In this document: positions 6,353-33,055 of the stretch, piece by piece
Layout: the number at the start of each line of letters is the position of its first letter
Position numbering within the stretch: the stretch's first letter is position 1
Origin: a virus
Taxonomy: Duplodnaviria > Caudoviricetes
Direction: 5' to 3' (one strand)
Length of the DNA: 64,000 nt
IMG/VR virus record: IMGVR_UViG_3300011008_000034
Location: 113,648-177,647 of that record
Notes under the pieces: model-generated
What the model was told of the DNA's origin: nothing
The model's input: the letters and a program-made list of their open reading frames with translations, nothing else
Database searches by the model: none
Translations under genes and position numbers: made by a program

Positions 6353-6535
6353 TTAATCTTCATCAGCGTATTCTAATGATGATGCTTTGATATTCGTATA
6401 ACTAACTTTTCCATTATCAATAAAATAAGTATTATCAGAAAATGTTTGAGTAATTGTATATATGCTATCATCGAAAGGATTTTTAGTAAATCTTACTTTA
6501 TCAAATAAGTAAAAACGTTTTGCTAATCTTTTCAT
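6353..6535 (-). CDS. Small hypothetical protein (SH3/KOW-like pattern)
   Basis: 60 aa; ATGA overlap with the upstream gene. Confidence 0.6.
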   Translation of the reverse strand: MKRLAKRFYLFDKVRFTKNPFDDSIYTITQTFSDNTYFIDNGKVSYTNIKASSLEYADED

Positions 6536-9500
6536 TTTTCAATCAATCTCCCTTTTACATAGAACAAATCTCCATATACAGGATTTAGATGATTAATTAC
6601 CGTGGTATTATAATTAATATTACTTACTACTAACAGCATAACTTCTCCACGTTCATTAATGACTAGACAATATCCACAAACATATTTTTTAATAGGATTT
6701 ACACAATCATTAAAATATAAATTAAAATCTATATTAGCAAAAGTAATTTTTCCGTCTTGGAAATAACTTGAATCTTTGGATATTTTATATGTATTAACCA
6801 AATTACAATATCCTTCATTAATTCCCTTTAACATAAAATCATTCATGAATACTAATTTTTTATTAACATTTTCATTATTTAATGCATAAGACATATCATT
6901 AAAAATATCTTTTAAAATAATATCTTGATTATCTATTTGATATCCATTATACATTCCACCAGGAAGTTCATTTACTAAATTTAAAATAATATTTTCATTA
7001 TTTGGTTTTCCAGTAGATAATGTTGTAATAAAATATGTCCAAGGGGTTACACGTGTAACTTCTTTTGTTTTAGTAGTCATAACACCTTGATAAGGAATAT
7101 GATTATACCAAATTGATAATAGCTCATCACTTGACATTTGATACGATATCATAATAGGAATTTGAATCGACACACCATTTCTTGGTTTTGATGATTCATC
7201 AAATATAATAGTAATAAATGGTGTTCCAAAAGAATCTTCAGTTATATGAACAGGAATAGTATTCCAAATTCGTTTATTTGTAGCTTGTCCATATTCATCA
7301 TAAAAAATTTCACCATCATGATATCCTAAAATCTCAGTATCATACTGTCCTGTAATATTTCCATTTTCATCTAAAATATTATTATTAAACGTATAAACAG
7401 ACTTTAAAATTCCTCCGCGGATTTCTCCATCATGAATAATATCCATACATGGTAAAGTATAAACGTTATCTACACCATTAGCTGTAAATTCTAATAATTT
7501 ACATTTATGCATATTTGTAAAAATGGTTTTAGAATTTAAGTCATAATCAAAACTATATCCCGAACAACCTAATTCCAACGTCAATGTATCGCCAATATTT
7601 AAGGGATATTCTAATTTAATTGTATAATTTAAATCTTCTTCGCCAATTATTGTTGATGGTGTTTTAGTAATTGAAGTAATTCTATTTGTATGAGTTCCTA
7701 CTATAGAAATAATTTTATAGCCATACATTTCCATAGGAATATCATATTGATTCGTACCATTACCAGAAATATTATAATAAATCAAACGGGCATAACATTG
7801 TGATTTAGTACGAGTACTATTAGCAAAATCATATGCTTCATCTTCATTGCCAAATACTTTTCTTGGTTTTAGATATGGTACTTTCCTTGGATATTCTGAA
7901 TCTTTTTTATGGAAAGATACTTCTTCAATAATATCTAATGGATAATCATAATTAGAATCAGGCATATCTAAATCATACTTTACTATGCCTGCAGCTAATA
8001 TTTCTGTAGGCATATCCAATCCACCACAACCTGCTGGGAAGCAAACTTTACAATGTATGACTACTTTTTCTAATGACTGGTCATAAGGTTTAAACTGAAC
8101 AATATTAGTTCCTAATCCTTCACATTTACCATAAATAGAATCCGTGAGATTGTTTCCTGACATATCATAAATAGCATTTATTTCGGATATATACCGGTCT
8201 GAATTTAATGAAATTGTAAATGTTTTTAAACTAACATCTTTATCATATTCTCGATAAAAAACTGTATCTTCTTGTTCAAATTCATTATCACTCAAGTTAT
8301 TGATTATTGAATCAAAGCTTGGAGCTAATAATGTATCTGATTCAAGAAAATCATGAGGAAGCATTGGCCAGAAATTATTGACCATATAACTATATCCAGT
8401 TCCGGAACCCATTACAACTTCAAAACAACGATTATACATCAAAACTTCTTCAATAACAAATCCAGGATTAGTAGTATTTCTTAAATCTCCAATCTTAAAT
8501 CTATATGGAGTCAAATAAGACACAGAACAATTACTTTGAGCAATTAGACTTCCATTTAAATAAACATAAATCTGTCCAATTACCGGGGAAGGATTTTCAT
8601 TATAAGACAACCTGACATGATAATATCTTCCTGAAATCATTAATGTTTCAGATAAATTAGCTATCGCTTTATTTTCAATATAATTATCATTAGATACTTC
8701 ATAATTATACTGAGCGAAGATTAATAAATTCTTTTCTTTACGTAATTGTATAATGGGAGAATTACTTTCATTTACAATGGATAATATGATTTGAGATGTT
8801 TCATCGCATCCATTCCAATTCGGTTTAATAAAGAAATCTATAGTCCCTCTATCTTTTTCTACTAAATCATTAATGGTATAAGATAATTCTGTATTATTAT
8901 CAATAACAGCACCAAGATGATTTAATGAAGATTCATAATAAATTGATTTTTCATAAATTCTTGGAGCCAATGGATCGTTTGTGGGATATTCTTGAATAAT
9001 ACTTCCGTTAAATGGGATATGAAAAATTGTTGAAGATACATTTGTGTAATCAAATGGTTTATTTCCAATCTGAACACGACGCATTTTTTTGGTCTGACTT
9101 GTTTCTAGGTTATTATTAAAAATATCTCGTATGGTATCATCTGCTATAGCGTTATATCTTATACTGGAAAATGTAATAGTTTTTCTTAAATCAATAATAT
9201 CAGATTTTGATATAGAATCATATGCCTTCATATCCGGTCTCATATTATTTTTTAAGTCTCCTTTTAAAGAGGAATCATTAGAGACCAGCATAGCATTATA
9301 TGATGGAGCACCATTATAATTATTGAAACTATATTTAGTAGTATTCCGTCTTCTTACTCTAAACATAGGAATAGCAAAGACATATCTTCCTTTTAAAGTA
9401 GATGACTGGATATCATAATTAGGACGGCCAGCTACATAAAGATTTTTATCTCCATAAAATGGTTCATCTATAAACAAATCATTTTCAGCAGAACAATAAC

Positions 9501-10161
9501 AAAGATTGACGTTAGGAGATGTAGTAAACTGTCCATTACATTTTGGGAATACTGCAGAATAATGAAGCATATCACTATATCCAAACCCTTCTGGATATGT
9601 ATCAAAATCACATTCTTGTTTAGTTTGAATATTCCAGTACGTTACTACCCTTCTAGAAGTCTCCTCATTCACTCTAGAGTCCATCGCCAGCGTTCCTAAG
9701 GAATTACCATTGGCATACCCGTATGCCTTAATCTCGCTATCGCCAGTGACAAATTCCTGCCAGACTTCTAAATATACTAATTCATCTAACGTGGATTTTG
9801 TCTGAGATACCCCTAAATCTATAAGAATATAATTTGGAATATTATTATATGAAAAATTCCCTTGACAGTTTAATGTTATTCCATTTACTATGCATTTAAA
9901 AGGAGCTATGGCTAATCTATTCTTTAAAATCAATCCATTAGAAGAAGGATTCAAAATCATACTATCACCAGTAAATTCTGATGATACTAATTCAGTAAAT
10001 CCACTATATACACTTTTTCTGATTATATCTTTTCTTGCCTCTTCTTGGATTTCCTGCATTTCATTTTGCTCTACGTCAAGTAAAGGACGATCAAAACCGA
10101 ATTTTATTTCAGAAAATCCAGAACGAGGGTCATAATTTGAGTGTTTTTCAAAATAATTCAA
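6532..10161 (-). CDS. Large baseplate/tail-fibre-associated virion protein with a LamG/ConA-like domain
   Basis: N-terminal FDRPLLDVEQNEMQ motif of baseplate-anchored proteins; GTIDFFIKPNW...YHVRLSY...VYLNG LamG-like segment; N-terminal ~330 aa paralogous to 24006-25982. Confidence 0.65.
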   Translation of the reverse strand: MNYFEKHSNYDPRSGFSEIKFGFDRPLLDVEQNEMQEIQEEARKDIIRKSVYSGFTELVSSEFTGDSMILNPSSNGLILKNRLAIAPFKCIVNGITLNCQGNFSYNNIPNYILIDLGVSQTKSTLDELVYLEVWQEFVTGDSEIKAYGYANGNSLGTLAMDSRVNEETSRRVVTYWNIQTKQECDFDTYPEGFGYSDMLHYSAVFPKCNGQFTTSPNVNLCYCSAENDLFIDEPFYGDKNLYVAGRPNYDIQSSTLKGRYVFAIPMFRVRRRNTTKYSFNNYNGAPSYNAMLVSNDSSLKGDLKNNMRPDMKAYDSISKSDIIDLRKTITFSSIRYNAIADDTIRDIFNNNLETSQTKKMRRVQIGNKPFDYTNVSSTIFHIPFNGSIIQEYPTNDPLAPRIYEKSIYYESSLNHLGAVIDNNTELSYTINDLVEKDRGTIDFFIKPNWNGCDETSQIILSIVNESNSPIIQLRKEKNLLIFAQYNYEVSNDNYIENKAIANLSETLMISGRYYHVRLSYNENPSPVIGQIYVYLNGSLIAQSNCSVSYLTPYRFKIGDLRNTTNPGFVIEEVLMYNRCFEVVMGSGTGYSYMVNNFWPMLPHDFLESDTLLAPSFDSIINNLSDNEFEQEDTVFYREYDKDVSLKTFTISLNSDRYISEINAIYDMSGNNLTDSIYGKCEGLGTNIVQFKPYDQSLEKVVIHCKVCFPAGCGGLDMPTEILAAGIVKYDLDMPDSNYDYPLDIIEEVSFHKKDSEYPRKVPYLKPRKVFGNEDEAYDFANSTRTKSQCYARLIYYNISGNGTNQYDIPMEMYGYKIISIVGTHTNRITSITKTPSTIIGEEDLNYTIKLEYPLNIGDTLTLELGCSGYSFDYDLNSKTIFTNMHKCKLLEFTANGVDNVYTLPCMDIIHDGEIRGGILKSVYTFNNNILDENGNITGQYDTEILGYHDGEIFYDEYGQATNKRIWNTIPVHITEDSFGTPFITIIFDESSKPRNGVSIQIPIMISYQMSSDELLSIWYNHIPYQGVMTTKTKEVTRVTPWTYFITTLSTGKPNNENIILNLVNELPGGMYNGYQIDNQDIILKDIFNDMSYALNNENVNKKLVFMNDFMLKGINEGYCNLVNTYKISKDSSYFQDGKITFANIDFNLYFNDCVNPIKKYVCGYCLVINERGEVMLLVVSNINYNTTVINHLNPVYGDLFYVKGRLIEK

Positions 10162-10329: not shown

Positions 10330-13300
10330 TTAGTTTTTAAATTTTCCTAATTCACTTGTTATTAATCCTTTTGCAGCTGCTCTTTCATATGATAAAAATT
10401 GACTAAAACTTACATCAAATTTATTTGCATCATAATATTTACTGCATACGTCATATAATCCACTTTTAGTTTTATACAATTTTGTAATTAACCTTACATC
10501 TACATTATCATTTTCAAATCCGGAAATAAATTTACTAATTAATTTCCGAGCTTCAGGCGTATACAAATATGTTAAACGATATGTTTCAAAATCTCTATAT
10601 CCACAATCGTTAATACAATAATCAGTCCTAGTATTAAAGAAACGTTTATTCAATAAAGCCATTTTTGTTTCTAATAAATTGAATTTTATTGCTTCATAAT
10701 AGCTTTTTAATTCTGTTTTTGAAAAATACGATTTTTTCTTAATGAATGTACCATTAGCGCTTGTATAATGATCAAGCATATGTCTATTAAATTCCGAATA
10801 AATATTATTGAAAATAACATCAAATTTCACCGATAATTCAACAATTTTTTTTCTTAATTCTTCAATTCCTGTTTCTGTTTTTCTTAATTCATTGAATATA
10901 TTATTTGATAATTCTTCATCAACTATATAAACCATAACACTAGACAACATTTTCATAAATGCCTTTTTCGGATTACTTATTTTTTGATGAGTAAAATAAT
11001 CACTAATATCGCAAGCCAATAATGTTTCTTTATCAGCTACAATCCCATCAGTCTTTGTAACTTTAATTATAGCATGACTATTGTATATATCCTTATAGAA
11101 CATCTTTAATTGTTTATCGGTATATCTTGTAGTAAAAATATTTTCAACATAATCATATCTGCATAATTTTGAAATATTCTCAACTTTTTTCATAATCTCA
11201 TCTGTATTAAACGTTGATTTTAAATTAATGCATGTATATCCCTTTACAAATTTATTATAATTCATTTGAGGAATACCAAATTCCTTACTATCAATGTAAT
11301 AAAGATTAAATAAATTTAAATATTGATAAATCATCATATATTGATATCCCAATTTTTCTTGACAACCAAATATAATTTCATTTACTGTATCAATCAAATT
11401 TGCATTTATGACAAAATATCCATTTCGGACAATATTTTGATAATTACTATGGAAATTCAAAAATATTGTAATGGCTAATACGCGAATTGCTTGAGCACAA
11501 TATTCAAATACATTTTTATTTTTCCGATTTTTTTCCTCAAATTTTTCTACCAATTTATATAGAGATAAAATATAATTATCAACTTCTTTATTTCTAAGAC
11601 CATAATAGAAAATCTTATCGCATTTATCATTACGAAAAGCTTTATTAAAGAATGCAACACATTTTGATTCAGAAATTCCACGTTCGTTAAACGTCTCAAA
11701 AACATTTCCTACGGTTTTATTTTCGCCCTTTATTCTAAGTGGATCACTAGAAAAATTGTGTCTACCATTAGGAAATTTTTTCTCCGTTTCACTCACTTTT
11801 TCAAATGGAATAAATCCTTTAAAATGAGCTAGATTAATACATTTTCCTTTTAATGGATTATCTCCATGACGTTCATAATCTGATAATTCGGCTAATTCAT
11901 TTAATGATTTTTTTAAAGAAAATCCACGATCTTTAGCATAAAACAATTTTAAGATATAATCCTTCCCACCTTCATAATCATTTTTTACAATATAATCACA
12001 TAACTTATTTTGTGATTCAACGTAAGGAGCATTTTTATGATGATGGAATTCTTTTCTAAATGACTTAAATGCTTGATAATCTTCAGGTTTATCAGAATAG
12101 AAACACCATGAATTTTTTAAAGAATACGTATCTTCATGTTTTGTCAAAATGGTCTGAAGTTTCTCCATAAGTTCTCCAGGAGAATGAAGACATGCTAAAT
12201 TTTTAGGATCTTTTAAATCCTTTATATATCTCAAAACAGATACAGGAAAATCTTTATTGTCATGTTTCATATGAACGCTATACGGAAATCTAAAAATACG
12301 CACAGGTGTAAAAGTGGCATTCATATCTATAGGAATTTCATATCCCAATGCAATGCCTAAAAAGTAAAATAACTCTTCTAAATGTTCATAAGACAAATAA
12401 CCACAATCTTCTTTTAAAATATTATGATGATATTCATAATCTGCTTTGTTTAAATAATACGTTTTATCCAATGACAAAACAATCTGAAAACCATTACATG
12501 ATTCAATCTTAGCTGTTAAATTCAAACCATATTTCATCATAACATGTTCAATTTCAAGATTCATCTGTTTTTTCAATTCATCTTTCTTTTCTTTGGAGGA
12601 AAAGTGAATCTTTTGTTCTACATTCTCAAATAAATCAATATCGAACATCAATGTACGAATAAATTTCATTGAATTCTTATCACGATAAATTTTTAAATCT
12701 GTTAAAATAAATTTTGAAAAATCTTCACTCTTATGTTTTTTTCTTAACTGATGAAAATACTTCTTTTTCTCATCATCAGTCATTGTGTTTATATGATTAA
12801 TTAAATCAAGTTTCGCGTTAGTGTCATTAACATAAAATTTATATGTATTATTTTTATGAACATCGTGAACTGCTTGAGCTGTATAAATATTACAAATCTG
12901 AAAAGCTCCCTCAATATCGCCATTTTGCATTCTTTCATAAGATTGTTTTGCCTTGTCAAGATATTGGTCTATATTATAATAGTACACATCTTTAAAAGAC
13001 TGATATGCAAGAACATATTTTTCACCCTTGAATTTACGATATTCTTTCATCGAAACTTTTTTCTTTTCATGATCGTTTATTTTAATATAGAATTCAGCAT
13101 TAATAATCCCTTGAGAAAGACAAAGACCATTTTTGAATGTATCTCCATATACAGCATATGCATAATCCTCTAATTGCTTTTTAACTTTCCCGTTTTCAAT
13201 ATCATCAAGAGAATTCTGAATACTTTTTTGCGAATTTCTAAGACCATTATCACAAAATTCAATAAAACTATCTCCCTTGAAAAGTGTTTTCCGCTCTTTA

Positions 13301-14055
13301 TTTACTAACTCTTCATTAGGATAAAAATCACCATTAAACGATTCAATGATTACAGAATTATTTTTTTTGTGTTTCGCACGTGGCTCATCTTTAGCAGTAA
13401 GAATATAATGTTCCTCAGTAAATGACTTGTTATTACGTTCATTAGTATAATATACTTCATTACAATATTGACGAATAGATGGTATTTTTTCAACAACTTT
13501 TTTAAATTCTTTCTGAAATTTTTGCGTAGCTTCAATTTTATTACATTGACTTAATTTAATTTTTTCTCGAGACACATCTTTTGAATTATCTTGATTTTCT
13601 TTAACATCTTGTAATGAAATGTTATTTGATTGAATAACTTCAGGTTGAACAACTTCTACTTCTACTTGTTTAGGTTGAATATTCTGAATATTCTTCTTTT
13701 TATTTAACTGAGGATTTAATTCTTCGTGAACAAATACCAATTTATATTTAGAATCAAAATATTCCGTGCTTTTCATATTATTGTATGTTTCAATAACACC
13801 TTGTTCTTCTTCAGGTTTTACGAACCATTTCTCTCTTGTATCTAAAGATTTTCCTTGATGTGATTTATAAATTGCATCGAAATCTTCATTAATATCTTGA
13901 CATAATATCTTTGCGGCCTTATCATCTAACTCAAGACCATATTGATTATCTGGATTAATGTATATATCATAAATCATTTCACCAGTATAATGATTTTTCA
14001 ACTTATATTTTGTCTGCTGAATCTGAGCATAGGTTTTATCAATTCTATTATACAT
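10330..14055 (-). CDS. Large protein with a central AEP (primase-polymerase/RepB'-like) domain; candidate replication initiator
   Basis: LMFDID (motif I), ESCNGFQIV (motif II, Q for H) and IDMNATFTPVRIFRFPYSVH (motif III plus RxxRxP), in the expected order. Confidence 0.6.
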   Translation of the reverse strand: MYNRIDKTYAQIQQTKYKLKNHYTGEMIYDIYINPDNQYGLELDDKAAKILCQDINEDFDAIYKSHQGKSLDTREKWFVKPEEEQGVIETYNNMKSTEYFDSKYKLVFVHEELNPQLNKKKNIQNIQPKQVEVEVVQPEVIQSNNISLQDVKENQDNSKDVSREKIKLSQCNKIEATQKFQKEFKKVVEKIPSIRQYCNEVYYTNERNNKSFTEEHYILTAKDEPRAKHKKNNSVIIESFNGDFYPNEELVNKERKTLFKGDSFIEFCDNGLRNSQKSIQNSLDDIENGKVKKQLEDYAYAVYGDTFKNGLCLSQGIINAEFYIKINDHEKKKVSMKEYRKFKGEKYVLAYQSFKDVYYYNIDQYLDKAKQSYERMQNGDIEGAFQICNIYTAQAVHDVHKNNTYKFYVNDTNAKLDLINHINTMTDDEKKKYFHQLRKKHKSEDFSKFILTDLKIYRDKNSMKFIRTLMFDIDLFENVEQKIHFSSKEKKDELKKQMNLEIEHVMMKYGLNLTAKIESCNGFQIVLSLDKTYYLNKADYEYHHNILKEDCGYLSYEHLEELFYFLGIALGYEIPIDMNATFTPVRIFRFPYSVHMKHDNKDFPVSVLRYIKDLKDPKNLACLHSPGELMEKLQTILTKHEDTYSLKNSWCFYSDKPEDYQAFKSFRKEFHHHKNAPYVESQNKLCDYIVKNDYEGGKDYILKLFYAKDRGFSLKKSLNELAELSDYERHGDNPLKGKCINLAHFKGFIPFEKVSETEKKFPNGRHNFSSDPLRIKGENKTVGNVFETFNERGISESKCVAFFNKAFRNDKCDKIFYYGLRNKEVDNYILSLYKLVEKFEEKNRKNKNVFEYCAQAIRVLAITIFLNFHSNYQNIVRNGYFVINANLIDTVNEIIFGCQEKLGYQYMMIYQYLNLFNLYYIDSKEFGIPQMNYNKFVKGYTCINLKSTFNTDEIMKKVENISKLCRYDYVENIFTTRYTDKQLKMFYKDIYNSHAIIKVTKTDGIVADKETLLACDISDYFTHQKISNPKKAFMKMLSSVMVYIVDEELSNNIFNELRKTETGIEELRKKIVELSVKFDVIFNNIYSEFNRHMLDHYTSANGTFIKKKSYFSKTELKSYYEAIKFNLLETKMALLNKRFFNTRTDYCINDCGYRDFETYRLTYLYTPEARKLISKFISGFENDNVDVRLITKLYKTKSGLYDVCSKYYDANKFDVSFSQFLSYERAAAKGLITSELGKFKN

Positions 14056-14216
14056 AAAATCGACCTTCCTTTCTTATTTAATTTTAAAAAAATTACGAAC
14101 TAGCACAACTTTAATTTATTATAAAAATCAACGCTAAAAATTTTTTTCATAAAATAAAGTTTTTTCTCTATAAAAAAATAATATGCTATGAATAAAAAAT
14201 AACAAAAGTGACTGTT

Positions 14217-14816
14217 TTATTCACAGTCACTAAATAAAGGAACTAACATTTTTTCAATCATCTTAACACTTTTTTTCATCATTGAATCAGTTATAGGATT
14301 ATATAAAATAATTTGACTTTGGGTCTTAAATTTCCCTTCACGTTTACATTTATAAAAATCCAAAGCAAATTGTGCAAACGAATCTTTATCAATTTTTTGT
14401 CTTGAACATTTTACTAAAATAACATATTTATGTGAAAAATATGTAAAATAATCTTCTTGTGTACATTTTATTTCAAATACTGGATTCAACAAATCAATAT
14501 ACAATAAAAATTTCATTAAACTAAGATATGGGAATGTAGCAACTAAATTATATTCACAATCTAATTCTGAATCTGACAAAAATTGCCTGTACTCTTGTTC
14601 AAATTTATCTTTATCTTCTTGTTTATCCCAATTTTCTTTTTGATGATTCAAAAAAAAGTCAATTAATTGCAATGCCAAATCATAATGTTCGTTAGATAAA
14701 TTTAATTTTCCTCCAAATGATTTCATTTTTACATCAAATAAATTTTCATACATAGGATTCGTTAAGACTTCATTAAGTACATCTTTCATAATATGAACTC
14801 CTTCTTTATTAGACAT
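14217..14816 (-). CDS. Hypothetical protein
   Basis: 199-aa ORF with AGGTG SD; first gene left of the repeat region. Confidence 0.7.
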   Translation of the reverse strand: MSNKEGVHIMKDVLNEVLTNPMYENLFDVKMKSFGGKLNLSNEHYDLALQLIDFFLNHQKENWDKQEDKDKFEQEYRQFLSDSELDCEYNLVATFPYLSLMKFLLYIDLLNPVFEIKCTQEDYFTYFSHKYVILVKCSRQKIDKDSFAQFALDFYKCKREGKFKTQSQIILYNPITDSMMKKSVKMIEKMLVPLFSDCE

Positions 14817-15116
14817 TTATTATCACCTAAATTAATTTTAGATAAAAAGGCTTTTCTATTTATCTTTTGTTTCTATAGTTTTCCTTATATTTTTCATATG
14901 CAAAAAAGCGTGCAAAATCAATGGTTATCCGGATAAGGTCTCATGATTGTTTCTTAATTTAAAATAATTTCACTACTACTAGCATATGTATGATATGTTT
15001 AGGCATTTTCGCCTCGGTGTCGGAAGTGAATACAGTGAACTTATTTCTCTAAAGTACTTTAAATACTTTTCTTTAGTAAATTAAATTAGTTAATTAATTT
15101 AGTAAAAAATATTTAC

Positions 15117-15860
15117 TCATAACAGCATGCTTTAGCATGCATGAAATTATTAGAAACTAAAGAGAAAGTAAATTAACTTTAGTATATTAATTTTATCTTA
15201 GATTAGTAAAGAAAACTAGAATCTAATCTCATAAGCATGCTTTAGCATGCATGATAAAAGATAGTAAAACTATTAAAAAAAAAAAGTTTAGTACCAGGTA
15301 CTAATTTTTTTTAAAGAATTAATTTCTTATAAAGTAAATTTAGTAGAGAGTATTTATTCATAGTAGCATGCTGAAAGCATGCATGAATTTACTAGAAACT
15401 AAAAAAAATATAATTAATTTAAGTACTTATCTTAAAATTATTTTTTAGTAAAGAAAGTTAAAGTCTAGTTTCATAGACATGCTTCAGCATGTATGATAAA
15501 AGACAGTAAAAATAACTAAAATAAATTTTAGTATTAAATTCTTTTTTAAGAAAATTAATTTTTAGTACCTAGTACTAATAAAGTAAATTTCATAAGCATG
15601 CTTCAGCATGCATGATAAAGACTAATTTTAGTTTACTTAATAAAAATAAGTTAATAGAGCGCTCCAGAGAGCGCATAAAAGAAAATAAAAAATAAATTAA
15701 GACTAAAAGTTATTTTTAATAAGTTAATCTATTTCATGAAGGCTTTCAACCTTCTATTATGAAATTTATTTTCTATTAGATAAAATTTTAACTACAGTTA
15801 GTTTTTTAGTATTTCATTTAATTTCTAGTAATTTCATGCATGCTAAGCATGCAGTTATGA
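15117..15860. repeat. Periodic array of palindromic units TCATA-n-GCATGCT-nn-AGCATGCATGA
   Basis: Direct copies start at 15117, 15229, 15358, 15471 and 15590; inverted copy at 15834-15860; degenerate hairpins near 15659-15674 and 15731-15765. Confidence 0.9.
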
Positions 15861-15890
15861 ATAGATACTTTCTATTAGATTTACTTTAGT

Positions 15891-15975
15891 AAAATTAATC
15901 TACTTAAAGAAAGTTAATTTACTTAAAGAAAGTTAGTCTACTTTAAGAAAGTTAATCTATTTTTAGAAAGTTAGT
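15891..15975 (+). repeat. 19-bp tandem repeat (about 4.5 copies), iteron-like
   Basis: AAAATTAATCTACTTAAAG / AAAGTTAATTTACTTAAAG / AAAGTTAGTCTACTTTAAG / AAAGTTAATCTATTTTTAG. Confidence 0.85.
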
Positions 15976-16422
15976 ACTAAAAGTACTTCTAAAGGAATTA
16001 AGTAAAGTAAGTACTCTTAGTACAGTGAGGCACCAATATGCGTGTACTACTAATCATACATGCTAGTAGTAGTAAATTATGTTAAATTAGGAAACGGCTG
16101 TCAAGCCTTATCCAGATAACTAGAATTTTGCACGCTTTTTTGCATTCATACTTAAGACTCTTAGTTCACTGTAGAGACATTTTTCTGAAATGCGTTATAA
16201 CTTCTATTCTTTAGAGACTTTTATTCATTAGATCGCCTCTCATGAGGCGACTTAAAGAGAAATAAAAGGAAATTTATTTTAGTAAAAGAACTAAGATAAA
16301 TAAGGACTAAGTTCATATGTTTGCACTATTAAAAAAAAGACTAAATAGTCAAAAAGTCAAACTTATAAAAAAACTATGTACATCTTTGTATTTTTATGGT
16401 AAAATAATCTAAGTAAAGGAGT

Positions 16423-18318
16423 GTGATTGACATGATTAGAGAAGCACATTTGCAGTTAATTAAACAATATGATCACGAATATTATGATTTAGATAATCCA
16501 AGTATTAGTGATTTAGAATATGATAAACTAAGAAAAGATTACATTAATTTATATGGAAGCAAAGATTTAAATTACACTCCAGGAAATGTTAAAGCAGATT
16601 TTGAGAAATTCAAACATCCTACACCTGTAGTTAGCTTAGATAAATGGACTAAAGATGTAGATGATAAAAAAGTTTTTATTAAGAAATGCAATGAATTTTG
16701 GCCTGTAGAAATACAGCCAAAGTATGACGGGCTTACGGTCGTGGTTTATCCGAATTCTGATGGCACTGGTAAGTTTGTTACTCGTGGTGGAGGAGATGTA
16801 GGAGAATTACTTCCTAATTTTATTCCTCAGTATGAGGGCAAGGTTTATTTAGGAGAAAAGTTTCCTATTCGTGGTGAAGTTTTTATTTCACCTGAGAACT
16901 TTATTACTTTAAATAAAAGATTAGAAGCTGCTGGGGAGAAATTGATGAAAAATCCTCGTAATGCAGCTGCAGGATTATTGCGGAGAAAAGAACGCAGTAC
17001 TAATCTTGATTTGTTAAGCTTTATTACATATGATATTCCAGGCAGTGAAATGACTCCGGAAGAAATGAGACAGTATATTAAAGAAAATACTGTTTTTCAT
17101 TTTACTAAAGGCTATACTTTTGATAAAGATACCATTTATGATGATATCTGGGGATTATATGACAAGATTAAAAATGAATATCCTATTGATGGATTGGTTA
17201 TGAAATCTTGTCAGGAAAATAGTTTGACTAAATTTGGTAGTACACAACATCATCCAAATAATGCTCTAGCCATTAAACCAAGTAAAGTTACTTATCGTAC
17301 TGTGATTAAAGATGTTATTTGGACTAATGGCAGAAAAAAGGTTACTCCTGTAGCTATTGTAGAACCAGTAGAAATTGATGGAACGACAGTATGTAAAGCT
17401 TCTTTGCATAATATGGATATGATTAAAAAATTAGGGATTAAAATTGGAGCAGAAGTAGAGATTTATAAGGCTAATGAAATTATTCCTCAGATTGACAGAG
17501 TAATTAAGAATGGATATAAAGAAATTGAGATTCCATTATGTCCTTCCTGTGGTCATGTATTAGAAAATATTAATGGTCAACAGTTTTGTACAAATCCTAA
17601 ATGTAAAGAGAAGATTTGTCAAAATATGGCATTCTTAGGACAGAAAAATGTTTTGAATATTGAAGGATTGAGTAACGAAACTGCTCGGAAAATCGTGGAA
17701 AAATTTGGATGTAAAAACCAAAATGATATCTTCGATTTAGATGAAGATGATTTAATGACACTTCCAGGATTTGCTGAAAAATCTGCTAAAAAGTTATTTA
17801 ATAATATTCAAAACAGCAGGCAGACTACGTTTATCAAATTTATCAAAGCTTGTTGCTGTGATGGAATTGGAGAAAATGTAGGAAAGATTTTATATGAGCG
17901 CTATAATGGGTTAGATAATTTTAGAAATGCAATATTTAAACAAAGTAAAATCAAAGTCGAAACTGAATTATCTGAACTAAAAGGATTAGGACAAGTAGCG
18001 ATTAAAAAACTGATGTCCAATGAATTCTGGGACGCGGTTGACCATTTAGCACATTATATTGAGATTATTGAAGAAAAGAAAAATGAAGGAAAATTTGCTG
18101 GTCAGGTATTTGTATTAACTGGAAAAATGGAACATCCTAGAAGTTATTACATTGATTTAATAGAACGTAATGGAGCTAAAGAAGGAAAATCCGTTTCTAA
18201 TAGTACTAATTATTTGGTTATTGCAGATATTAATAGTACAAGCAGTAAAGCTAAAAAAGCTAGAGAATTAGGAACGGTTTTGATTTCTCCAGAACAATTG
18301 GAAGAAATGATGAGGTGA
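16423..18318 (+). CDS. ligA: NAD-dependent DNA ligase
   Basis: YY..DNPSISDLEYD, KYDG adenylation motif, TRG, RGEV, NPRNAAAG, C4 Zn finger, HhH repeats, C-terminal BRCT (FVLTG...SSSKAKKA). Confidence 0.97.
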   Translation: MIDMIREAHLQLIKQYDHEYYDLDNPSISDLEYDKLRKDYINLYGSKDLNYTPGNVKADFEKFKHPTPVVSLDKWTKDVDDKKVFIKKCNEFWPVEIQPKYDGLTVVVYPNSDGTGKFVTRGGGDVGELLPNFIPQYEGKVYLGEKFPIRGEVFISPENFITLNKRLEAAGEKLMKNPRNAAAGLLRRKERSTNLDLLSFITYDIPGSEMTPEEMRQYIKENTVFHFTKGYTFDKDTIYDDIWGLYDKIKNEYPIDGLVMKSCQENSLTKFGSTQHHPNNALAIKPSKVTYRTVIKDVIWTNGRKKVTPVAIVEPVEIDGTTVCKASLHNMDMIKKLGIKIGAEVEIYKANEIIPQIDRVIKNGYKEIEIPLCPSCGHVLENINGQQFCTNPKCKEKICQNMAFLGQKNVLNIEGLSNETARKIVEKFGCKNQNDIFDLDEDDLMTLPGFAEKSAKKLFNNIQNSRQTTFIKFIKACCCDGIGENVGKILYERYNGLDNFRNAIFKQSKIKVETELSELKGLGQVAIKKLMSNEFWDAVDHLAHYIEIIEEKKNEGKFAGQVFVLTGKMEHPRSYYIDLIERNGAKEGKSVSNSTNYLVIADINSTSSKAKKARELGTVLISPEQLEEMMR

Positions 18319-22112: not shown

Positions 22113-23327
22113 TTATTGGATTATTCCGTTTTCATCAAAAATAGCAAATATATTTTCCGAATCATGAATGCATAATGAATCAACATTAATGTATATTAAA
22201 TCGTAATTTTTTAAACATTCATAACAAAAATCAAATAAAGATAAAAGTTCTTTATCTTCAAATATGATATCATATGTTGTTACATAACGAATAATCTTAT
22301 ATCCTTGTTTAATGATTGATTGATTTCGTTTTTCTTCATAATTAGTTGTATCAAAATTTTTATAATACAAGTGTCCTCCACCATCATATTCAATGTCATA
22401 TTTTTGATTATTTTTCTCTATTACCATATCTAAAAGATAACGTTTTGCTATAATGTGTTGTTCTGCGTTTAAAATTTGTGCTAATAAATCTTGTTCTTTT
22501 GATGATTGACACGTGCCGTTTTCTTTTTTACCAATAAGCATTTTTTCCATAATTTTATCATTTTGATACATATACTCAACACCATAACGTTCAAATGTAG
22601 TTGCTTTTATTTTTTCAAGTATTTCCGGATGTTCTTGATATGCTTTTTTATGACTTTCAGAACTTTTTTTCTTTATTTCAGGATTTTTACTAACATTATC
22701 ATATTGGTATTTTTCTATACATGTTTTCTTTCGTTTTTCTTGAATTTGTTCTTTTTTCTCAGAAGAAAAATTTTGTATTGTTTGTTTTTGTTTTTCTTTT
22801 GCTCCAGGAACTTCCATTGGATTAGTTGTATTATATCTTTCTAGCATAGTGTTGTTAAATTTGTTTTTTACATTAGGATTTTGCCATGGATAGTCACATC
22901 CATATCTTTCTCTACTAGTAGCTTTTAATTTTTCTTGTAGCTGTTGATATCCTTCAGGATTTATCTCTTTATCATAATGATTTTTATATGTATTTAACGC
23001 TTTTTCTTTAAATTGTGAACATTGCATTGGTTTTTCGCATCCGTATTTTTTTAAATTTGTTATTTTTGATAGCTTATTTCCACATTTTCTTCCACAAGAA
23101 AATGGTAAATTATTTTTTACACGGTAAGCTATTCTTCCAAATGGAACTGAAAATTCTCTATAACATACATCACATTTACAATCAACAATTGCAGTACAAC
23201 AATCACTTAAATCCTCAATTTTTACAGGAAATTTATCGTTAAACTTTGTAAATATATATCCTTTTGATTCATAATATTTTTTATTTACTCCATTCCATGT
23301 TACCGTAGCAAATTTACTTAATAGCAT
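22113..23327 (-). CDS. Free-standing homing-type endonuclease (Zn-ribbon, K/R-YG repeats, Vsr/DUF559-like domain)
   Basis: Start MLLSKF after GGGGTG SD; KYYESKGY, CKCDVC; repeats KYGCEKPMQ/RYGCDYPWQ/RYGVEYMYQ; LLDMV...DIEYDGGGH...RNQSIIKQGYKIIR. Confidence 0.7.
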   Translation of the reverse strand: MLLSKFATVTWNGVNKKYYESKGYIFTKFNDKFPVKIEDLSDCCTAIVDCKCDVCYREFSVPFGRIAYRVKNNLPFSCGRKCGNKLSKITNLKKYGCEKPMQCSQFKEKALNTYKNHYDKEINPEGYQQLQEKLKATSRERYGCDYPWQNPNVKNKFNNTMLERYNTTNPMEVPGAKEKQKQTIQNFSSEKKEQIQEKRKKTCIEKYQYDNVSKNPEIKKKSSESHKKAYQEHPEILEKIKATTFERYGVEYMYQNDKIMEKMLIGKKENGTCQSSKEQDLLAQILNAEQHIIAKRYLLDMVIEKNNQKYDIEYDGGGHLYYKNFDTTNYEEKRNQSIIKQGYKIIRYVTTYDIIFEDKELLSLFDFCYECLKNYDLIYINVDSLCIHDSENIFAIFDENGIIQ

Positions 23328-23342
23328 TTTATCACCCCATAA

Positions 23343-23375
23343 AAAATAATGGTAAAAATTCTTTACCATTATTTT
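23343..23375 (-). terminator. Probable terminator of the baseplate operon
   Basis: AAAATAATGGTAAA-5nt-TTTACCATTATTTT. Confidence 0.6.
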
Positions 23376-23386
23376 ATAAAAATTAT

Positions 23387-23992
23387 TTAGAATGTTAATC
23401 TCCAAATTATAGAAATCCTATGGTTGTTTGTCTTAGATATACATTCGAAACTTTTCATATTGAACATGATACCTGATCCTTTTTCACTAGTAGCGTTTCC
23501 CCCGAATAATGCTACTTCATTTAATGGGGCATTCGCTTCGTCTTCAGTTAGTGTAGTACTAATTTGAAGAATATTTGTAGCTACATCAGATATTGACCCA
23601 TCAGGATTTAAGAAATTCCAAGAAGTAAATTGTTTTCTAAAAATTTCATTGGTTAATTGTGTTCTATCTAATGTTGGTTCTGGAGGATTTAAAATATCAT
23701 ATGCATCTCTATCTACAGGATTTGTTTCTTTATCATATTCTCTAGTAGAGTCTGTTAATATTCCTGTTCCTACGGCTAGGTATTGAAGTCCATGGTCAAA
23801 ATAATCTCCTTCAAAACTTTCTTCTTCACCACCTGTAATAGCGCCGGGAGCCATTCGACCAGCCATTAACGTACTTGCTGCAGAAACAATGAGGTTATGG
23901 TCTTCTATTTCTCGTACGACTTTATCTTTTTCATACATTGTGATTTTTATCTCACCATGAGGTTTTTTATATTTTTTTTCAATTAAAATCAA
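23387..23992 (-). CDS. Tail-collar/fibre-attachment baseplate protein
   Basis: HNLIV...YLAVGTG...LTNEIFRK...EANAPLNEVALFGG...KT...IIWRLTF, the pattern of myophage fibre N-terminal/collar domains. Confidence 0.7.
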   Translation of the reverse strand: MILIEKKYKKPHGEIKITMYEKDKVVREIEDHNLIVSAASTLMAGRMAPGAITGGEEESFEGDYFDHGLQYLAVGTGILTDSTREYDKETNPVDRDAYDILNPPEPTLDRTQLTNEIFRKQFTSWNFLNPDGSISDVATNILQISTTLTEDEANAPLNEVALFGGNATSEKGSGIMFNMKSFECISKTNNHRISIIWRLTF

Positions 23993-24005: not shown

Positions 24006-25982
24006 TTAATCTATATCAATCTTATTCATGGGAATAGTTTTACGTACTGGTGTTACATCATATAAATCATGATGAGGTACTTCGCAGAATACTAAGCAAT
24101 TAATAAATAATTCAGTATCTATACTGCCAGATTGATATACAGTAAATTTATTTTCTTCTTCAGTATCAACAAATGTTTCACCAATTTGTCCAGTTTCATC
24201 TATTTCACCAGAGGAAATTAACCATGGCGTACTTAAACATACACTATAATTTTCCCCAAATGATAGTGATTCTTTTGTAATGCCTTCAGGACCATTTAAA
24301 TTTAATGAAAACATTTCAAGATTACGAATTGTACTATCTGAAATATCAATTAATACCCAAGTAAATTCATTGTCAGTGGTAGAAACAGTTTCACCAGTAT
24401 CATCAGTTGTTAAACCAGTATTGAATACTGTAAATGATGTTTGATTTAATCTGATATAAATATCGCCATTACGTCCATTAGTATCTTCATTTGGAATAAT
24501 AGAAATAAAATGTATATCGTTATTTATGTCAAATCCGACATCAATTTCAGTTCCATCTGTACCATTAAATACATCTGTGCCAGACATAACATATTTATCA
24601 TTTGCATTAAAAGTAGCAAAATTCATTTGTAAGTCTTTAGCACCAGTATTATTAAAGATGAAATATTTTTTACCTTTAGTGATAAAATAATCGCCAAGTT
24701 CACCCTTTTCATCATAATTATATTCATACAATGTCGGGATTACTACATAATCTTCTTCTTCAAATTGATTTCCGACATAGTATTTATTTTTACGATAAAT
24801 AATTAATGAATCATCATCATGAGGGATTAAATACCCACCAGACGTAATACCATTTTGACGATAGCAATCTATTCCATAAATTTTTTTATCATATATAGAA
24901 GGAATTGAATATCCAAGATTATGTAAAATTGTATCACATGCTTTTAAATCAATAGATAAGTGATTGATTTTATTTTTTAGCATGGTTTGATATTTATAAG
25001 CATCTTCTAATTTAGCATAAATTTTATTATATTGTGCTTCGCCTAATGCTGATAAATGTCGTAAATCTACAATTTGGTCTTCATAAATAATATTAGAAAA
25101 TTTATTATCCGGACGGTCAGATATTGAAGATTCATTGATATAATCAATTCCACCATATGGATTCATTTCAGCAGAATATCCAGAATTATTTAATCGTCTA
25201 ATAGTAAATAATGGAATTGCATAAATATACCCGTCAACCGTTGGGATTCTAGAAGTATTTCCTTCACCAGCAATATATAATCCTTCATCAGTTGTTGAGG
25301 GAATGAAATAATAATCTGTATAATATAAACCATTTAATCCTGTCGGATGAATTCTAGGATTAGGATTATTATCATCATCAATAAATCCCGTATTTGTCTT
25401 GTCTTCATAATCTTCGTAAACATTTATTCTCCATTGGAATTGTAATCTTCTACTCGTTTCAATTCCGCATCTGTCATCAATAATAGAATAAGCAAGAACA
25501 TCATTATCTTCATATCCATAACAATGTACTTGGTCATTTTGCTTTAATTCTTTAATCCAACATTGTAAGAATATAAAATCATTTCTTGTTCCAGCAACCG
25601 GAGGATTAGAAAGACGTACATCAATATTTTTTTCTACATTGTCTTCTATATATTTTACATTAATAATATCTCCATTTACTACACATTTAAATGGGGGAAA
25701 TGTAACTGTATTTGGTTTTCCTAATATAGGAAGAAAACATTTACTACAATTATGAATATTGTTTTCATCGTCTAATTCCGGATTTTCTGTAATAACTCCA
25801 GAATTGGTGATTTCTCGAATTAAATTAGATGTTTGTTCTGAATTAATAAACTGCATTTCATTTAATTCTTGTTCTGTTACGTATGCATCAGAGCCAATAT
25901 TTAAAGACTTAAAACTGGCTTTTTGATTATATTTTCCTTTATATGGATATGTAAAAGTGGGATTTGAGTCTATCAGGGACAT
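24006..25982 (-). CDS. Baseplate/tail-fibre-associated virion protein
   Basis: EQELNEMQ, ETSRR, YAIPLFTIRR, RPD and IVDLR motifs shared with 6532-10161; baseplate operon context. Confidence 0.65.
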   Translation of the reverse strand: MSLIDSNPTFTYPYKGKYNQKASFKSLNIGSDAYVTEQELNEMQFINSEQTSNLIREITNSGVITENPELDDENNIHNCSKCFLPILGKPNTVTFPPFKCVVNGDIINVKYIEDNVEKNIDVRLSNPPVAGTRNDFIFLQCWIKELKQNDQVHCYGYEDNDVLAYSIIDDRCGIETSRRLQFQWRINVYEDYEDKTNTGFIDDDNNPNPRIHPTGLNGLYYTDYYFIPSTTDEGLYIAGEGNTSRIPTVDGYIYAIPLFTIRRLNNSGYSAEMNPYGGIDYINESSISDRPDNKFSNIIYEDQIVDLRHLSALGEAQYNKIYAKLEDAYKYQTMLKNKINHLSIDLKACDTILHNLGYSIPSIYDKKIYGIDCYRQNGITSGGYLIPHDDDSLIIYRKNKYYVGNQFEEEDYVVIPTLYEYNYDEKGELGDYFITKGKKYFIFNNTGAKDLQMNFATFNANDKYVMSGTDVFNGTDGTEIDVGFDINNDIHFISIIPNEDTNGRNGDIYIRLNQTSFTVFNTGLTTDDTGETVSTTDNEFTWVLIDISDSTIRNLEMFSLNLNGPEGITKESLSFGENYSVCLSTPWLISSGEIDETGQIGETFVDTEEENKFTVYQSGSIDTELFINCLVFCEVPHHDLYDVTPVRKTIPMNKIDID

Positions 25983-26650: not shown

Positions 26651-29640
26651 TAAAAATCCTCCTCATTAACGAGTACTTCAACACCGTCAATTATTTCATA
26701 TACTTTTATTGAACAAGCATCATGCATTTTTATAGGAAAACAAGTAGTTGATTGATTTGTAATAGAATGGTTTGTAATAAGCATACTTGGTTTTTCCACA
26801 AAATTATATGGTGCTTCTATAATTGGCATAGATTGAGATATAAGATTAAATTCTTCTGGTTTTGGAAATTGTTCTTGATGAATAATATCCAAAGATGTTT
26901 TTGATTCAATTTTTGGTTTAGGGAATTGTTCTTTTAAAATAAAATCTGTATTTATTTCTAATACATCATCCATTTTCTCAACAAATCCGGTTTTATAGGA
27001 ATTTGTCTTTAATCCCGTTTTTAAGACTTTATCTAATTTTATTCTATAAGGAAGTTCAGAAAAAGATAATTGTGAATTGAATAAATAATCATCTGATTTA
27101 GGTTCATAATTATCTTGATGATATAATTCTACAGTTAAAAGTAATTCATCTAATGGTTTGGGTACATCATCACTTAATGTCATAGATAATTCAAATGTAC
27201 AATCATCAGACAACATATATTTAAATCCAGTTACAAAATTATTTGTAGTTAAGCCTGTTCTTAATACTCTATCTTTATAATTCCGATATCCAAAACGTTG
27301 TTCAATTAATAGCATTTCTATATTTAATAAATCAAATTCTTCAGGCGTTTTTTCATATACTTCATTATAATTGGCATATACATCAAATTCATCTAATTCA
27401 TGAGGAGTTTGATAATATTCTTTATGATTAATTACAGAAATATAATTATCTCTATCATGCAAAGTATATTTAGGCCCTAAAACATATGCAGAATTTAAGT
27501 TGTGAACATTTGGATGAAATACTAGAGGATATTGTAATGACTTCCAGCCATATTGGTTTGATTCTTCAAAATCATATACTATAACTTCATTTTTATCAGA
27601 ATTTTTCCATTCTTCACCATGAATGGTTTCATATTGTGATTGATAATCTTCTTCACCAACATATGAAATAATAATGATGGGAATTGTATGAGCTGGTTTT
27701 GTAATATCTATAACTAAATGAATGTCTTTAATTAATAAATCTAAATCCCCACTAGCATCAAAACTTTTTTCGACATCTACATAAAACCGGTACTGATTTT
27801 CAAAACTCATATCTTCAGTCATGCCATATCGTTCATAATCTTTATACATTTCATAAATATGGACCGTAAATCCTGTACATGTCATTAAAGCTTTTTCTAT
27901 ACTTGGTTTGGTTGCGCCGTGGAGCAATGATTCTATAATTGCAGATACTACAGAACGATATTTTTCTTCATCCCAGTCTCTGCGCTGTTCAACTTGAATC
28001 ATACATCCGAAGTTATTATAAATCATATCTCCATGGGCGGTTTTTAAGTAATAATTATCTTCTAATATGGTTCGTTCGTATTCTAAATCACCTAATTCCA
28101 TAGCTAATGCACGTAAGAATTTAGGATAATTTAATCCATCATATGTTTCTTTAGGATAATCATTAGGAACGTCATCCAATAAAACTCGTGCATAATTTCG
28201 ATAAATTTGCATTCGTTTTTCTGCTTCTGCATAAACACTGTCATCTACTTTCGCATCTAAAGATACTTCTTCTTCTACAAAAATAAAATCATAAGTCTTA
28301 AAGACAATATCTAATGGATTTAATAACATTCCATTAGTTTTATCAGGCAAATAATAATATCTATTTGCTGCAGGCTTTAATGTTACTTTAGTATAAACAG
28401 GATTTTTTACTAATACTTGACGTTCTTTTGTTGGAAAAATAATCGTACCTAATAATGATTTATCACTATTCATTAACATAATGCTGGTGACATCATCACT
28501 AATAACATATGGACGTTTATTTGCTAAATGATAGGTGTTATCTGCTAATTGAGTATATTGCTCTATTTTATTTAATATGAAATTAAATTGGTCATAAGCA
28601 GGTTTTTTAGTATTCCCTAAAAAATAGTAAAGTAAGCCATAACAATTTTTTTCTAAATCAGAATCTTCATTATAAAATTCATCTACTAGTTGTGTCTTAA
28701 AAGGAATAACATCACATGAATAAGCATTAATGATTTCTCTTAAATCTCTAAATGCTTGAGTCTGTAAATCTGAAAAATTACCTTGTTCAGCTTGATGTCC
28801 TTGATATGTAGAATAATAAATAAATTGTTTAGATAAATTATTTCGTCTTAATTGAGTATTGATTCCATCTTTTAAATTTTTTATGATTTCAGGATATGAT
28901 TCATATTTTAAGTCTTCAAAATCTTGTCTTCCTTGAAAAGCAAAAAAATCAATATAAGATAAAAATCCTGCAGGTTCGTCTACATCAGTATATTGATTCG
29001 TTCCATAATATTCTCCAATTGCTTCAGCTAACCAGCCTAAATGATAAGTATCATTATCTGGAGTTTGATATGCAGACTTTACATAATTAGCAATTCCATG
29101 ACTACATCCTGGACCACCAATTTGTATGTCTGGATATTTAATAGAAATAACTTCTTTAACATATTTTAAAATTTTGACATATAAATGTGCTGGACATTTT
29201 ATTTTTCCCGCAGAATCTAAACTATCTGGTTCTGTACAAATTTGCCAGTATTTTACCCAAGAATAATTATTAATAATGTTTGCTGTAAATTGAGCATATG
29301 CCATATAATTTTGTTGAGTAACTACTGTGGGAAAATCTATTTCTAAAAATAGATTTAATTTATAGTGTTGACATAAGTCTTTATATGTTTTTAATCTTTC
29401 AACAAAAGGCCATAATTCGCCATTAATTCCTGAATTAGCAATATATAATTGATTATAATTATCTTTAGCAATGGGAATACTGTCAATGACTTCAGTAAAA
29501 TTTAATTTTGATATATAAAGGAATAAATCTTCTAATTTTTGTTGTACTGCTTCTACTCCAGATAAGTCTTTATAATTCCAAACTTCTCCTAATAATGAAT
29601 CACCATTTTTTAAAGCAGTCAGTCTTACGCCAGTTCTCAA
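26650..29640 (-). CDS. Baseplate wedge protein (P2 gpI/DUF2313-like) fused to an N-terminal glycoside-hydrolase-like barrel
   Basis: Follows the baseplate J gene; YLKTAHG..NNFG...EKYR...LLHGAT...KPAHT wedge motifs; N-terminal YWQICTEPD, IQIGGPG, IDFFAF, YGLL...KKPAY. Confidence 0.65.
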   Translation of the reverse strand: MRTGVRLTALKNGDSLLGEVWNYKDLSGVEAVQQKLEDLFLYISKLNFTEVIDSIPIAKDNYNQLYIANSGINGELWPFVERLKTYKDLCQHYKLNLFLEIDFPTVVTQQNYMAYAQFTANIINNYSWVKYWQICTEPDSLDSAGKIKCPAHLYVKILKYVKEVISIKYPDIQIGGPGCSHGIANYVKSAYQTPDNDTYHLGWLAEAIGEYYGTNQYTDVDEPAGFLSYIDFFAFQGRQDFEDLKYESYPEIIKNLKDGINTQLRRNNLSKQFIYYSTYQGHQAEQGNFSDLQTQAFRDLREIINAYSCDVIPFKTQLVDEFYNEDSDLEKNCYGLLYYFLGNTKKPAYDQFNFILNKIEQYTQLADNTYHLANKRPYVISDDVTSIMLMNSDKSLLGTIIFPTKERQVLVKNPVYTKVTLKPAANRYYYLPDKTNGMLLNPLDIVFKTYDFIFVEEEVSLDAKVDDSVYAEAEKRMQIYRNYARVLLDDVPNDYPKETYDGLNYPKFLRALAMELGDLEYERTILEDNYYLKTAHGDMIYNNFGCMIQVEQRRDWDEEKYRSVVSAIIESLLHGATKPSIEKALMTCTGFTVHIYEMYKDYERYGMTEDMSFENQYRFYVDVEKSFDASGDLDLLIKDIHLVIDITKPAHTIPIIIISYVGEEDYQSQYETIHGEEWKNSDKNEVIVYDFEESNQYGWKSLQYPLVFHPNVHNLNSAYVLGPKYTLHDRDNYISVINHKEYYQTPHELDEFDVYANYNEVYEKTPEEFDLLNIEMLLIEQRFGYRNYKDRVLRTGLTTNNFVTGFKYMLSDDCTFELSMTLSDDVPKPLDELLLTVELYHQDNYEPKSDDYLFNSQLSFSELPYRIKLDKVLKTGLKTNSYKTGFVEKMDDVLEINTDFILKEQFPKPKIESKTSLDIIHQEQFPKPEEFNLISQSMPIIEAPYNFVEKPSMLITNHSITNQSTTCFPIKMHDACSIKVYEIIDGVEVLVNEEDF

Positions 29641-29656
29641 AAGATTTCACCTTCCT

Positions 29657-31585: not shown

Positions 31586-31598
31586 ACATATTCACCTC

Positions 31599-32087: not shown

Positions 32088-32110
32088 AAAATCCCCTCCA
32101 AATATGGAGA

Positions 32111-33007: not shown

Positions 33008-33022
33008 TCCTTTCTAAAAAAA

Positions 33023-33050: not shown

Positions 33051-33055
33051 CAATT

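Follow-up and report, generated by a model that had tools for sequence, protein, structure and literature searches.

What is the role of a 1.25-kb non-coding element that is symmetric about its centre and lies between divergent genes of a very large phage? The element, here named E1, is found in the IMG/VR record IMGVR_UViG_3300011008_000034 (177,647 nt, 28% GC; hereafter the contig). The final 64 kb of this record are the window that we analysed, and coordinates refer to the window unless the contig is mentioned. Since CheckV estimates the record to be about 36% complete, the phage must be very large and, to our knowledge, hardly any replication origins have been mapped in uncultured phages of this kind. 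E1 is 1248 nt long (14898-16145), occupies most of the longest non-coding gap in the contig (14817-16422, 1606 nt) and has a run of minus-strand genes on one side and a short plus-strand operon on the other. An original prediction had pointed it out as a candidate bidirectional origin or, alternatively, as a miniature inverted-repeat transposable element (MITE). We find that E1 is a real, reproducible and highly organised cis-element with a paralogue, E2, in the same contig. Because strand composition flips at E1 and at E2, 99 kb apart, we believe, with modest confidence, that E1 is most likely a cis-acting, iteron-type palindromic origin of bidirectional replication, and that the phage has at least two such origins, E2 being the second.

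A symmetric element with sharp ends and an ordered interior

E1 is bounded by two terminal inverted repeats of 21 nt (14898-14918 and 16125-16145) that are complementary at 21 of 21 positions, or of 20 nt when the A/T in common with the flanking hexamer is excluded. They open two arms of about 95 nt with approximately 81% complementarity, in which the identity per 25-nt block, from the outside inward, is 23/25, 19/25, 18/25 and 22/25 and then drops to about 60%. The symmetry ends sharply at the 21-mers, the likeness of the flanks beyond them not being significant (p=0.64), and the 177-kb contig contains no further copy of the terminal 21-mer even when up to four mismatches are allowed. Each arm carries a TTATCC[G/A]GATAA palindrome. 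The left one, TTATCCGGATAA (14925-14936), is followed by GG, and this 14-nt stretch (14925-14938) includes CGGATAAGG, a motif shared with E2; the right one belongs to the near-palindrome CCTTATCCAGATAA (16106-16119), a mirror of the left copy that includes TTATCCAGATAA at 16108-16119. The motif GGATAAGG is found seven times in the contig, two of them in E1 and two in E2. The inverted arms with perfect outer bases, the paired palindromes, the TG...CA ends, the hexamer TTCATA on both flanks (14893-14898 and 16145-16150, plus strand) and the position at the strand switch had all been described in the original prediction and are confirmed here, the switch lying between a minus-strand gene for a 199-aa protein and a plus-strand ligase operon. 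The same applies to the presence of TTCATA within the internal repeats, where it is the conserved 5' flank of four hairpins (H3 to H6). Considering that the same hexamer flanks the hairpins on their 5' side, the flanking direct repeat, which resembles a target-site duplication, may be a functional word and not a duplication. E1 is not a misassembly, since a second public assembly (ENA contig L013, 66.8 kb; ERZ3810914), which may or may not derive from a separate sample, aligns over 21,887 nt of this region with a single mismatch, its copy of E1 being identical.

The interior of E1 is built of five direct units of about 120 bp, of two alternating types (A and B), plus one inverted unit, and each unit holds a hairpin. 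These hairpins have a two-tier shape, with a lower stem TCAT/ATGA, a bulge of 2-4 nt confined to the 5' side, an upper stem GCATGC/GCATGC and a loop of 3-4 nt, and as single-stranded DNA they fold with -5.9 to -8.4 kcal/mol. On the plus strand, unit alignment places H1 (type A, -6.2 kcal/mol) at 15117-15144, H2 (type B, -6.6 kcal/mol) at 15229-15254, H3 (type A, -8.4 kcal/mol, z -3.3) at 15357-15387, H4 (type B) at 15471-15496 and H5 (type B, -6.7 kcal/mol) at 15590-15615. In H4, a stem pair changed from G-C to A-T is compensated (ACATGC...GCATGT, 6 pairs, -5.9 kcal/mol). The sole inverted unit bears H6 (type A, 15833-15861, minus strand), which folds with -8.2 kcal/mol on that strand and whose inverted matches, I3 and I4, show 89-93% identity. 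All GCATGC-N3-6-GCATGC palindromes of the 177-kb contig are within E1. Two further palindromes, right of the centre, are unique, namely the GC-rich GCGCTC-CAGA-GAGCGC (15659-15674, -7.6 kcal/mol, z -5.4) and a weak one around GAAGG-N7-CCTTC (15734-15762, -3.5 kcal/mol). A CRISPR-like array was also considered for the units, and rejected because the "spacers" between the hairpins are about 80% alike.

Also to the right of the centre there is an array of 4.4 repeats of 19 bp with the consensus AAAGTTAATCTACTTAAAG (15891-15973, plus strand; Tandem Repeats Finder score 117). There are also a lone copy at 15721-15738 (plus strand), detected as an 18-mer match, and a lone inverted core (left half; 15166-15177, minus strand). 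Every match in the contig to the iteron 18-mer with up to three mismatches lies inside E1. Thus, if iteron-type loci are taken to be those with at least three tandem repeats of about 17-22 bp, the E1 array, to which the two solitary copies are added, is of this type. The least stable duplex of E1 (15496-15600) is close to its geometric centre and represents a candidate unwinding region; in a nearest-neighbour scan it ranked in the top 0.1-0.3% of the 60-100-nt windows of the contig. The core had been described as extremely AT-rich, a description that misses the hairpin units, GC-rich palindromes and iterons that the core also holds.

A second, related element in the same contig

On listing the long non-coding gaps we found a second symmetric imperfect palindrome free of open reading frames (ORFs), E2, at contig 29610-31125 (about 2111-3626 of L112). 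Its arms measure about 240 nt or more and include stretches of 80 nt and 53 nt, each at 89%. Several k-mers are present in E1 and E2 and nowhere else in the contig, namely the iteron core TCTACTTAA(A), AAGTTAATCTA, CGGATAAGG and AGTTCACTG, and a local alignment of the two iteron regions reached a z of about 5. The kinship does not extend to every part. E2 has no GCATGC hairpins and instead displays four CCTT-N7-AAGG palindromes, its ends are fuzzy and differ from those of E1, and the iterons point inward in E2 and outward in E1. In both elements the least stable 60-100-nt windows are among the top 0.1-0.6% of the contig, several promoter regions being less stable.

The proteins flanking E1 are not paralogous to those flanking E2, and both loci are next to genes of DNA metabolism. 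E2 adjoins genes for RuvC, SbcD and SbcC and is some 5 kb from a DnaE-like (HHH_6) gene, and the neighbourhood of E1 comprises genes for a ligase, a DEAD-type helicase, an intein-bearing helicase and an orphan protein that resembles archaeo-eukaryotic primases (AEP). The occurrence of such clusters at both elements was counted in favour of an origin. With respect to other features near E2, a 62-aa ORF at its edge looks spurious and was discarded. Immediately to the right (contig 31178-34481) there are genes for two orphans of 274 and 821 aa whose coding-strand skew of G against C at third codon positions (GC3 skew) is -0.22 and -0.34, negative values that set them apart from nearly all other genes of the contig. 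Farther on, the minus strand has two ORFs, of 441 and 458 aa, with a gap of 468 nt between them (contig 36290-39460; L114:17291-20461). The first encodes the HHH_6 domain of the DNA polymerase III alpha subunit, and the pair may represent a split or intron-interrupted DnaE-type polymerase.

Strand composition switches at E1 and E2

A cumulative skew curve had been proposed as a check that could refute an origin at this locus. The raw cumulative GC skew did no more than mirror gene orientation and had no global minimum at E1. We then used an orientation-free measure, which compares G with C at the third codon positions of the coding strand, and with this correction an inflection at E1 became evident. 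When only minus-strand genes were considered, the two largest steps of GC3 skew in the contig were those at E2 (from 0.25 to -0.32) and E1 (from 0.35 to -0.13), and the next-largest one (0.19) was under half of them. In 2,000 shuffles of the genes, a second step equal to or larger than that observed had p=0.008, and both peaks falling at the E1 and E2 sites had p=0.0105. The cumulative corrected curve had the shape of a double V, its minima lying at 28-32 kb and at 124-128 kb of the contig, and the sign of the skew at both elements (plus strand G-richer rightward) was that expected for the direction of an origin. At four-fold degenerate sites alone there were few G/C sites and the signal was noisy, the largest step, at 12 as well as at 20 kb, still falling at E1.

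This phage has a canonical promoter class, AAAAACTATTTACA-N14-TGnTATAAT, with about 20 intergenic copies, almost all of them between 4 and 109 kb of the contig and none inside E1 or E2. At 13 such promoters on the minus strand the same skew statistic was -0.07 +/- 0.13 (maximum 0.17), as compared with 0.62 at E2 and 0.52 at E1. Since ordinary promoter boundaries show no step, the switch is not a general effect of the start of transcription units. These results give indirect support to the proposed origin, the two strongest orientation-free polarity switches being at E1 and at its relative E2.

Conservation and database searches

This lineage is almost without relatives. The 1241-aa AEP-like protein encoded near E1 has a single relative (97% identity), in contig L009, and this contig retains at least the left arm of E1, so that the only relative bearing the AEP-like gene does not lack the region, in line with what the original prediction required of an origin. 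L009 ends inside the array; its left arm is 93% identical, with the palindrome unchanged and one C>T in the 21-mer, as compared with 98.7% for the 81-nt upstream flank of the 199-aa gene. In close relatives, contigs assembled from short reads are interrupted at or close to E1: one ends some 175 nt into the left arm, and another, the contig of P0122, begins 150 nt upstream of the ligase gene. The internal repeats of E1 probably hinder assembly.

No close relatives were recovered from IMG/VR with the 199-aa protein and the ligase. Among GenBank phages there was no DNA match to the region and none to the 1241-aa protein, and all ligase matches were below 60% identity. Phages with a ligase 54-60% identical (L010-L012, and G001-G005 from IMG/VR) showed neither synteny nor DNA matches to E1 or E2. 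The 19-mer of the E1 end matched 7 times in IMG/VR and 88 times in GTDB (one genome per species), always as single, scattered and unrelated occurrences attributable to chance. The hairpin 20-mer had no match in the viruses of IMG/VR and two unrelated ones, in coding DNA, in JGI metagenomes; the pattern of an iteron pair gave 12 matches, all unrelated, and that of the two-block module none. One of the phages with a related ligase (L010, a 254-kb contig; ligase 59% identical) carries at 11952-17675 a type IV CRISPR-Cas-like locus with Csf1, Csf3 and Cas6-like genes plus a helicase, followed by a 1.8-kb gene-free stretch.

Evaluation of alternative explanations

Several observations weigh against an origin at E1. 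Between two close relatives, the identity of the visible arm (93% and 90%) is about that of the third codon positions of neighbouring genes (87-92%), and an arm that drifts at the third-position rate is for the most part not strongly constrained. The sharp ends with their TTCATA direct repeat are transposon-like and unaccounted for by an origin, windows less stable than those of E1 and E2 exist in the contig, and E2 is not AT-rich overall. TTATCCAGA is indeed one mismatch away from a DnaA box, as had been remarked, but DnaA boxes (TTATCCACA) are at chance level, with no exact one, and E1 and E2 each contain one box with a single mismatch versus 0.6 expected, and a DnaA-dependent origin was consequently rejected. 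No initiator was identified, there being no recognisable Rep gene and the flanking proteins being orphans in Pfam and PHROG scans. The skew test is indirect, with crude ORF calls, few genes just to the right of each element and p values of only about 0.01, and a module boundary with different codon habits could imitate or add to the step. Moreover, most genes to the right of E1 and E2 would be head-on to the proposed forks, and the contig covers only about 36% of the genome. One rival proposal is that E1 controls transcription or is the locus of a non-coding RNA, its arms serving the divergent genes as promoters or operators, or firing inward, and its units yielding small RNAs, terminators or processing sites. 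The location between divergent transcription units, the operator-like palindrome in each arm, the conserved polar two-tier shape of the hairpins with one compensated pair, and a leftward 199-aa gene devoid of a canonical promoter would all fit, and in the right arm TTGACA-17-CATAAT points inward and a weaker CTGTCA-17-TAGAAT outward. However, promoter matches of the quality of the inward one (11/12) number 40 in the contig, of which about 17 are intragenic, and the chance of finding one in E1 is about 0.13, while the left arm has no good equivalent. The canonical promoter of the ligase operon (16373-16405, plus strand), which has no second intergenic copy in the window, is outside E1, and since the operon has its own promoter the right arm is dispensable in that role. 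The best-conserved stretch upstream of the 199-aa gene is likewise outside E1, no Rfam family matched, and the hairpins have no terminator-like tails. This explanation leaves the strand-composition switch, absent at ordinary promoter boundaries, unexplained, and we consider it unlikely.

The ends of E1 raise the question of transposition. According to this view, E1 would be mobile but non-autonomous, as are MITEs, mobile insertion cassettes and foldback-type elements, and would have inserted at TTCATA, with E2 as a diverged relative and with origin-like cargo possible in both. MITEs and mobile insertion cassettes are bounded by the ends of insertion sequences, and like them E1 presents a perfect terminal inverted repeat of 20-21 nt with TG...CA ends, a flush 6-bp direct repeat, no coding capacity and a size of about 1 kb. 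From base composition we estimate the probability of the direct repeat at these fixed positions by chance at about 0.001 (order of magnitude). The symmetry ends abruptly and the arms evolve in a roughly neutral manner; in addition, foldback elements have long inverted arms containing tandem sub-repeats, which E1 resembles. In contrast to MITEs, a single pair of E1 ends is known: the 177-kb contig, about 36% of the genome, contains no further copy, the matches in IMG/VR and GTDB are single and unrelated to the phage, the hairpin motif has no related match in IMG/VR or JGI metagenomes, and the ends of E2 are different. No rve, DDE_Tnp_1, Resolvase or Phage_integrase (tyrosine recombinase) gene was detected in the contig in a search limited to these four families, and the site is filled in the sole relative, L009, no empty site having been found. 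Furthermore, TTCATA doubles as the 5' flank of the hairpins, and a selfish insertion would not predict skew minima at E1 and E2. The MITE alternative of the original prediction is thus mostly unsupported, and we regard a mobile element of any of these kinds as improbable. Much the same can be said of another kind of protein-binding repeat site, be it for partition (centromere-like), packaging or nucleoid organisation. Iterons and palindromes at only two distant loci would suit any protein that marks a few genomic positions, but among the proteins scanned no ParA, ParB or terminase-linked gene adjoins E1 or E2, and the strand-composition switch is not predicted, so that we give this possibility little weight. 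Finally, perfect 21-bp inverted repeats 1.2 kb apart between divergent genes could be the crossover sites of an invertible DNA switch, with a recombinase flipping the core. This we find hardly credible, as the 177-kb contig has no serine or tyrosine recombinase gene, the orientation is the same in the two assemblies, the contig of the relative breaks about 175 nt inside the arm and not at the repeat, and there is no internal canonical promoter to flip.

Comparison with known origins and a possible mechanism

Iteron-type origins include those of plasmids P1, F, RK2 and pSC101, of phage lambda (ori) and of T4 (oriE). E1 shares with them tandem repeats of the 17-22-bp class, a candidate AT-rich and easily melted stretch, nearby replication genes and a long non-coding region. 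It differs in the lack of a recognisable Rep or initiator gene and of DnaA-box enrichment, in being as a whole a 1.25-kb imperfect palindrome with sharp ends and six hairpin units, and in the existence of at least two related copies per genome whose iterons are directed outward in one (E1) and inward in the other (E2). The IncQ plasmid RSF1010 provides a parallel for the hairpins: its oriV combines iterons, an AT-rich stretch and two hairpin sites, ssiA and ssiB, on complementary strands, and a 40-nt site with a hairpin at nt 7-27 and a specific 6-nt 5' flank is recognised by the AEP-fold primase RepB' (PMC8567376). Similarly, the hairpin units of E1 span 32-36 nt, bear a conserved hexamer on the 5' side and are two genes away from the AEP-like gene. 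In contrast to RSF1010, there are six hairpins (five plus one) spaced by about 120 nt instead of two, the neighbour is a 1241-aa orphan with no likeness to RepB' by hidden Markov models (HMM), no RepA- or RepC-type genes were seen in the phage, and E2 has no GCATGC hairpins. The oriL and oriS of herpes simplex virus are palindromes of 45-144 bp with defined UL9 boxes. E1 is comparable to them in its palindromic nature, AT-rich centre and location between divergent genes that include replication genes, as well as in the proposed presence of more than one origin per genome, but it is about ten times longer, contains tandem units and is phage-borne.

On this basis, initiation at E1 as an iteron-type origin might proceed as follows. 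A phage initiator, possibly one of the flanking orphan proteins, would bind the 19-bp iterons and the GGATAAGG near-palindromes common to E1 and E2, and the AT-rich centre would melt. The strand-specific GCATGC hairpins, five one way and one the other, would then be extruded and could stabilise the open state or serve for entry or priming, after which forks would depart in both directions. Binding, melting and priming at E1, and any part played in them by the neighbouring AEP-like protein, are what we infer from this arrangement. A bolder proposal, by analogy with RSF1010, is that the hairpins are strand-specific sites of single-strand initiation, of which five would serve one fork and the sixth the opposite one, and that they are read by the 1241-aa AEP-like orphan inside a palindromic iteron origin, the phage having several such origins. 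We consider this version doubtful; if true, it would mean an RSF1010-like priming logic, multiplied and virus-borne, and a primase family without detectable relatives. In any case, two related cis-elements could be placed within about 1 kb from sequence alone. If they are origins, a block of orphan genes, including that of the 1241-aa protein, would acquire a likely function, and orientation-free skew could be used to locate origins where raw GC skew merely tracks transcription.

Neighbouring genes and other features

The minus-strand run to the left of E1 encodes orphans of 199 aa (14217-14816, adjoining the left arm; no Pfam or PHROG match), 1241 aa (10330-14055) and 1209 aa, plus the intein-bearing helicase. 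The plus-strand operon on the right begins with the NAD-dependent DNA ligase (16423-18318; Pfam and PHROG matches) and continues with three small orphans and the DEAD/HA2 helicase. The AEP-like character of the 1241-aa product had been part of the original prediction. It is suggested by three motifs recognised on visual inspection (MFDIDLF, SCNGFQ and D..RIFRFPYSVHMK) and by the protein-language-model neighbours of residues 430-660, all of which are AEP families (0.88-0.90). Profiles did not detect it, as residues 420-650 had no Pfam match even at E<=5 and no AEP HMM match. The protein had no match in Pfam, PHROGs or PDB sequences and, among 1.84 billion representative proteins, no homologue other than the 97% relative in L009; AlphaFold on residues 400-680 reached a pLDDT (predicted local distance difference test) of 38.7, too low for use. 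The AEP-like identity is thus a lead and not a demonstration.

The Rfam scan of the region gave nothing at the gathering score and, at E<=1, just a sub-threshold tsr26 outside E1. Between E1 and the ligase promoter there is a GC-rich hairpin without a T tail (TCGCCTC-TCAT-GAGGCGA, 16231-16251), and that promoter is overlapped by what may be an ORF of 30 codons preceded by a weak ribosome-binding site (16318-16410). The structural-gene half of the contig has no copy of the canonical promoter and must therefore use another promoter type. Elsewhere, a GC-rich gap of 755 nt that lies downstream of a canonical promoter (contig about 93.6-94.0 kb) gave two tRNA matches barely above the Rfam threshold (L113:1109-1178 and 1458-1529), and a group I intron and a RAGATH-18 RNA were matched in Rfam at 35766-37437. 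The ligase operon closes with one of five paralogues, which include a 430-aa protein (22113-23405; DUF7487, with weak endonuclease-like DUF559/MTES_1575 similarity), the others being at 627-1571 and at contig 54969, 74437 and 80889. Lastly, the N-terminal 340 residues of the 1209-aa orphan (6532-10161) are 28% identical to a 658-aa protein of the structural block (24006-25982).

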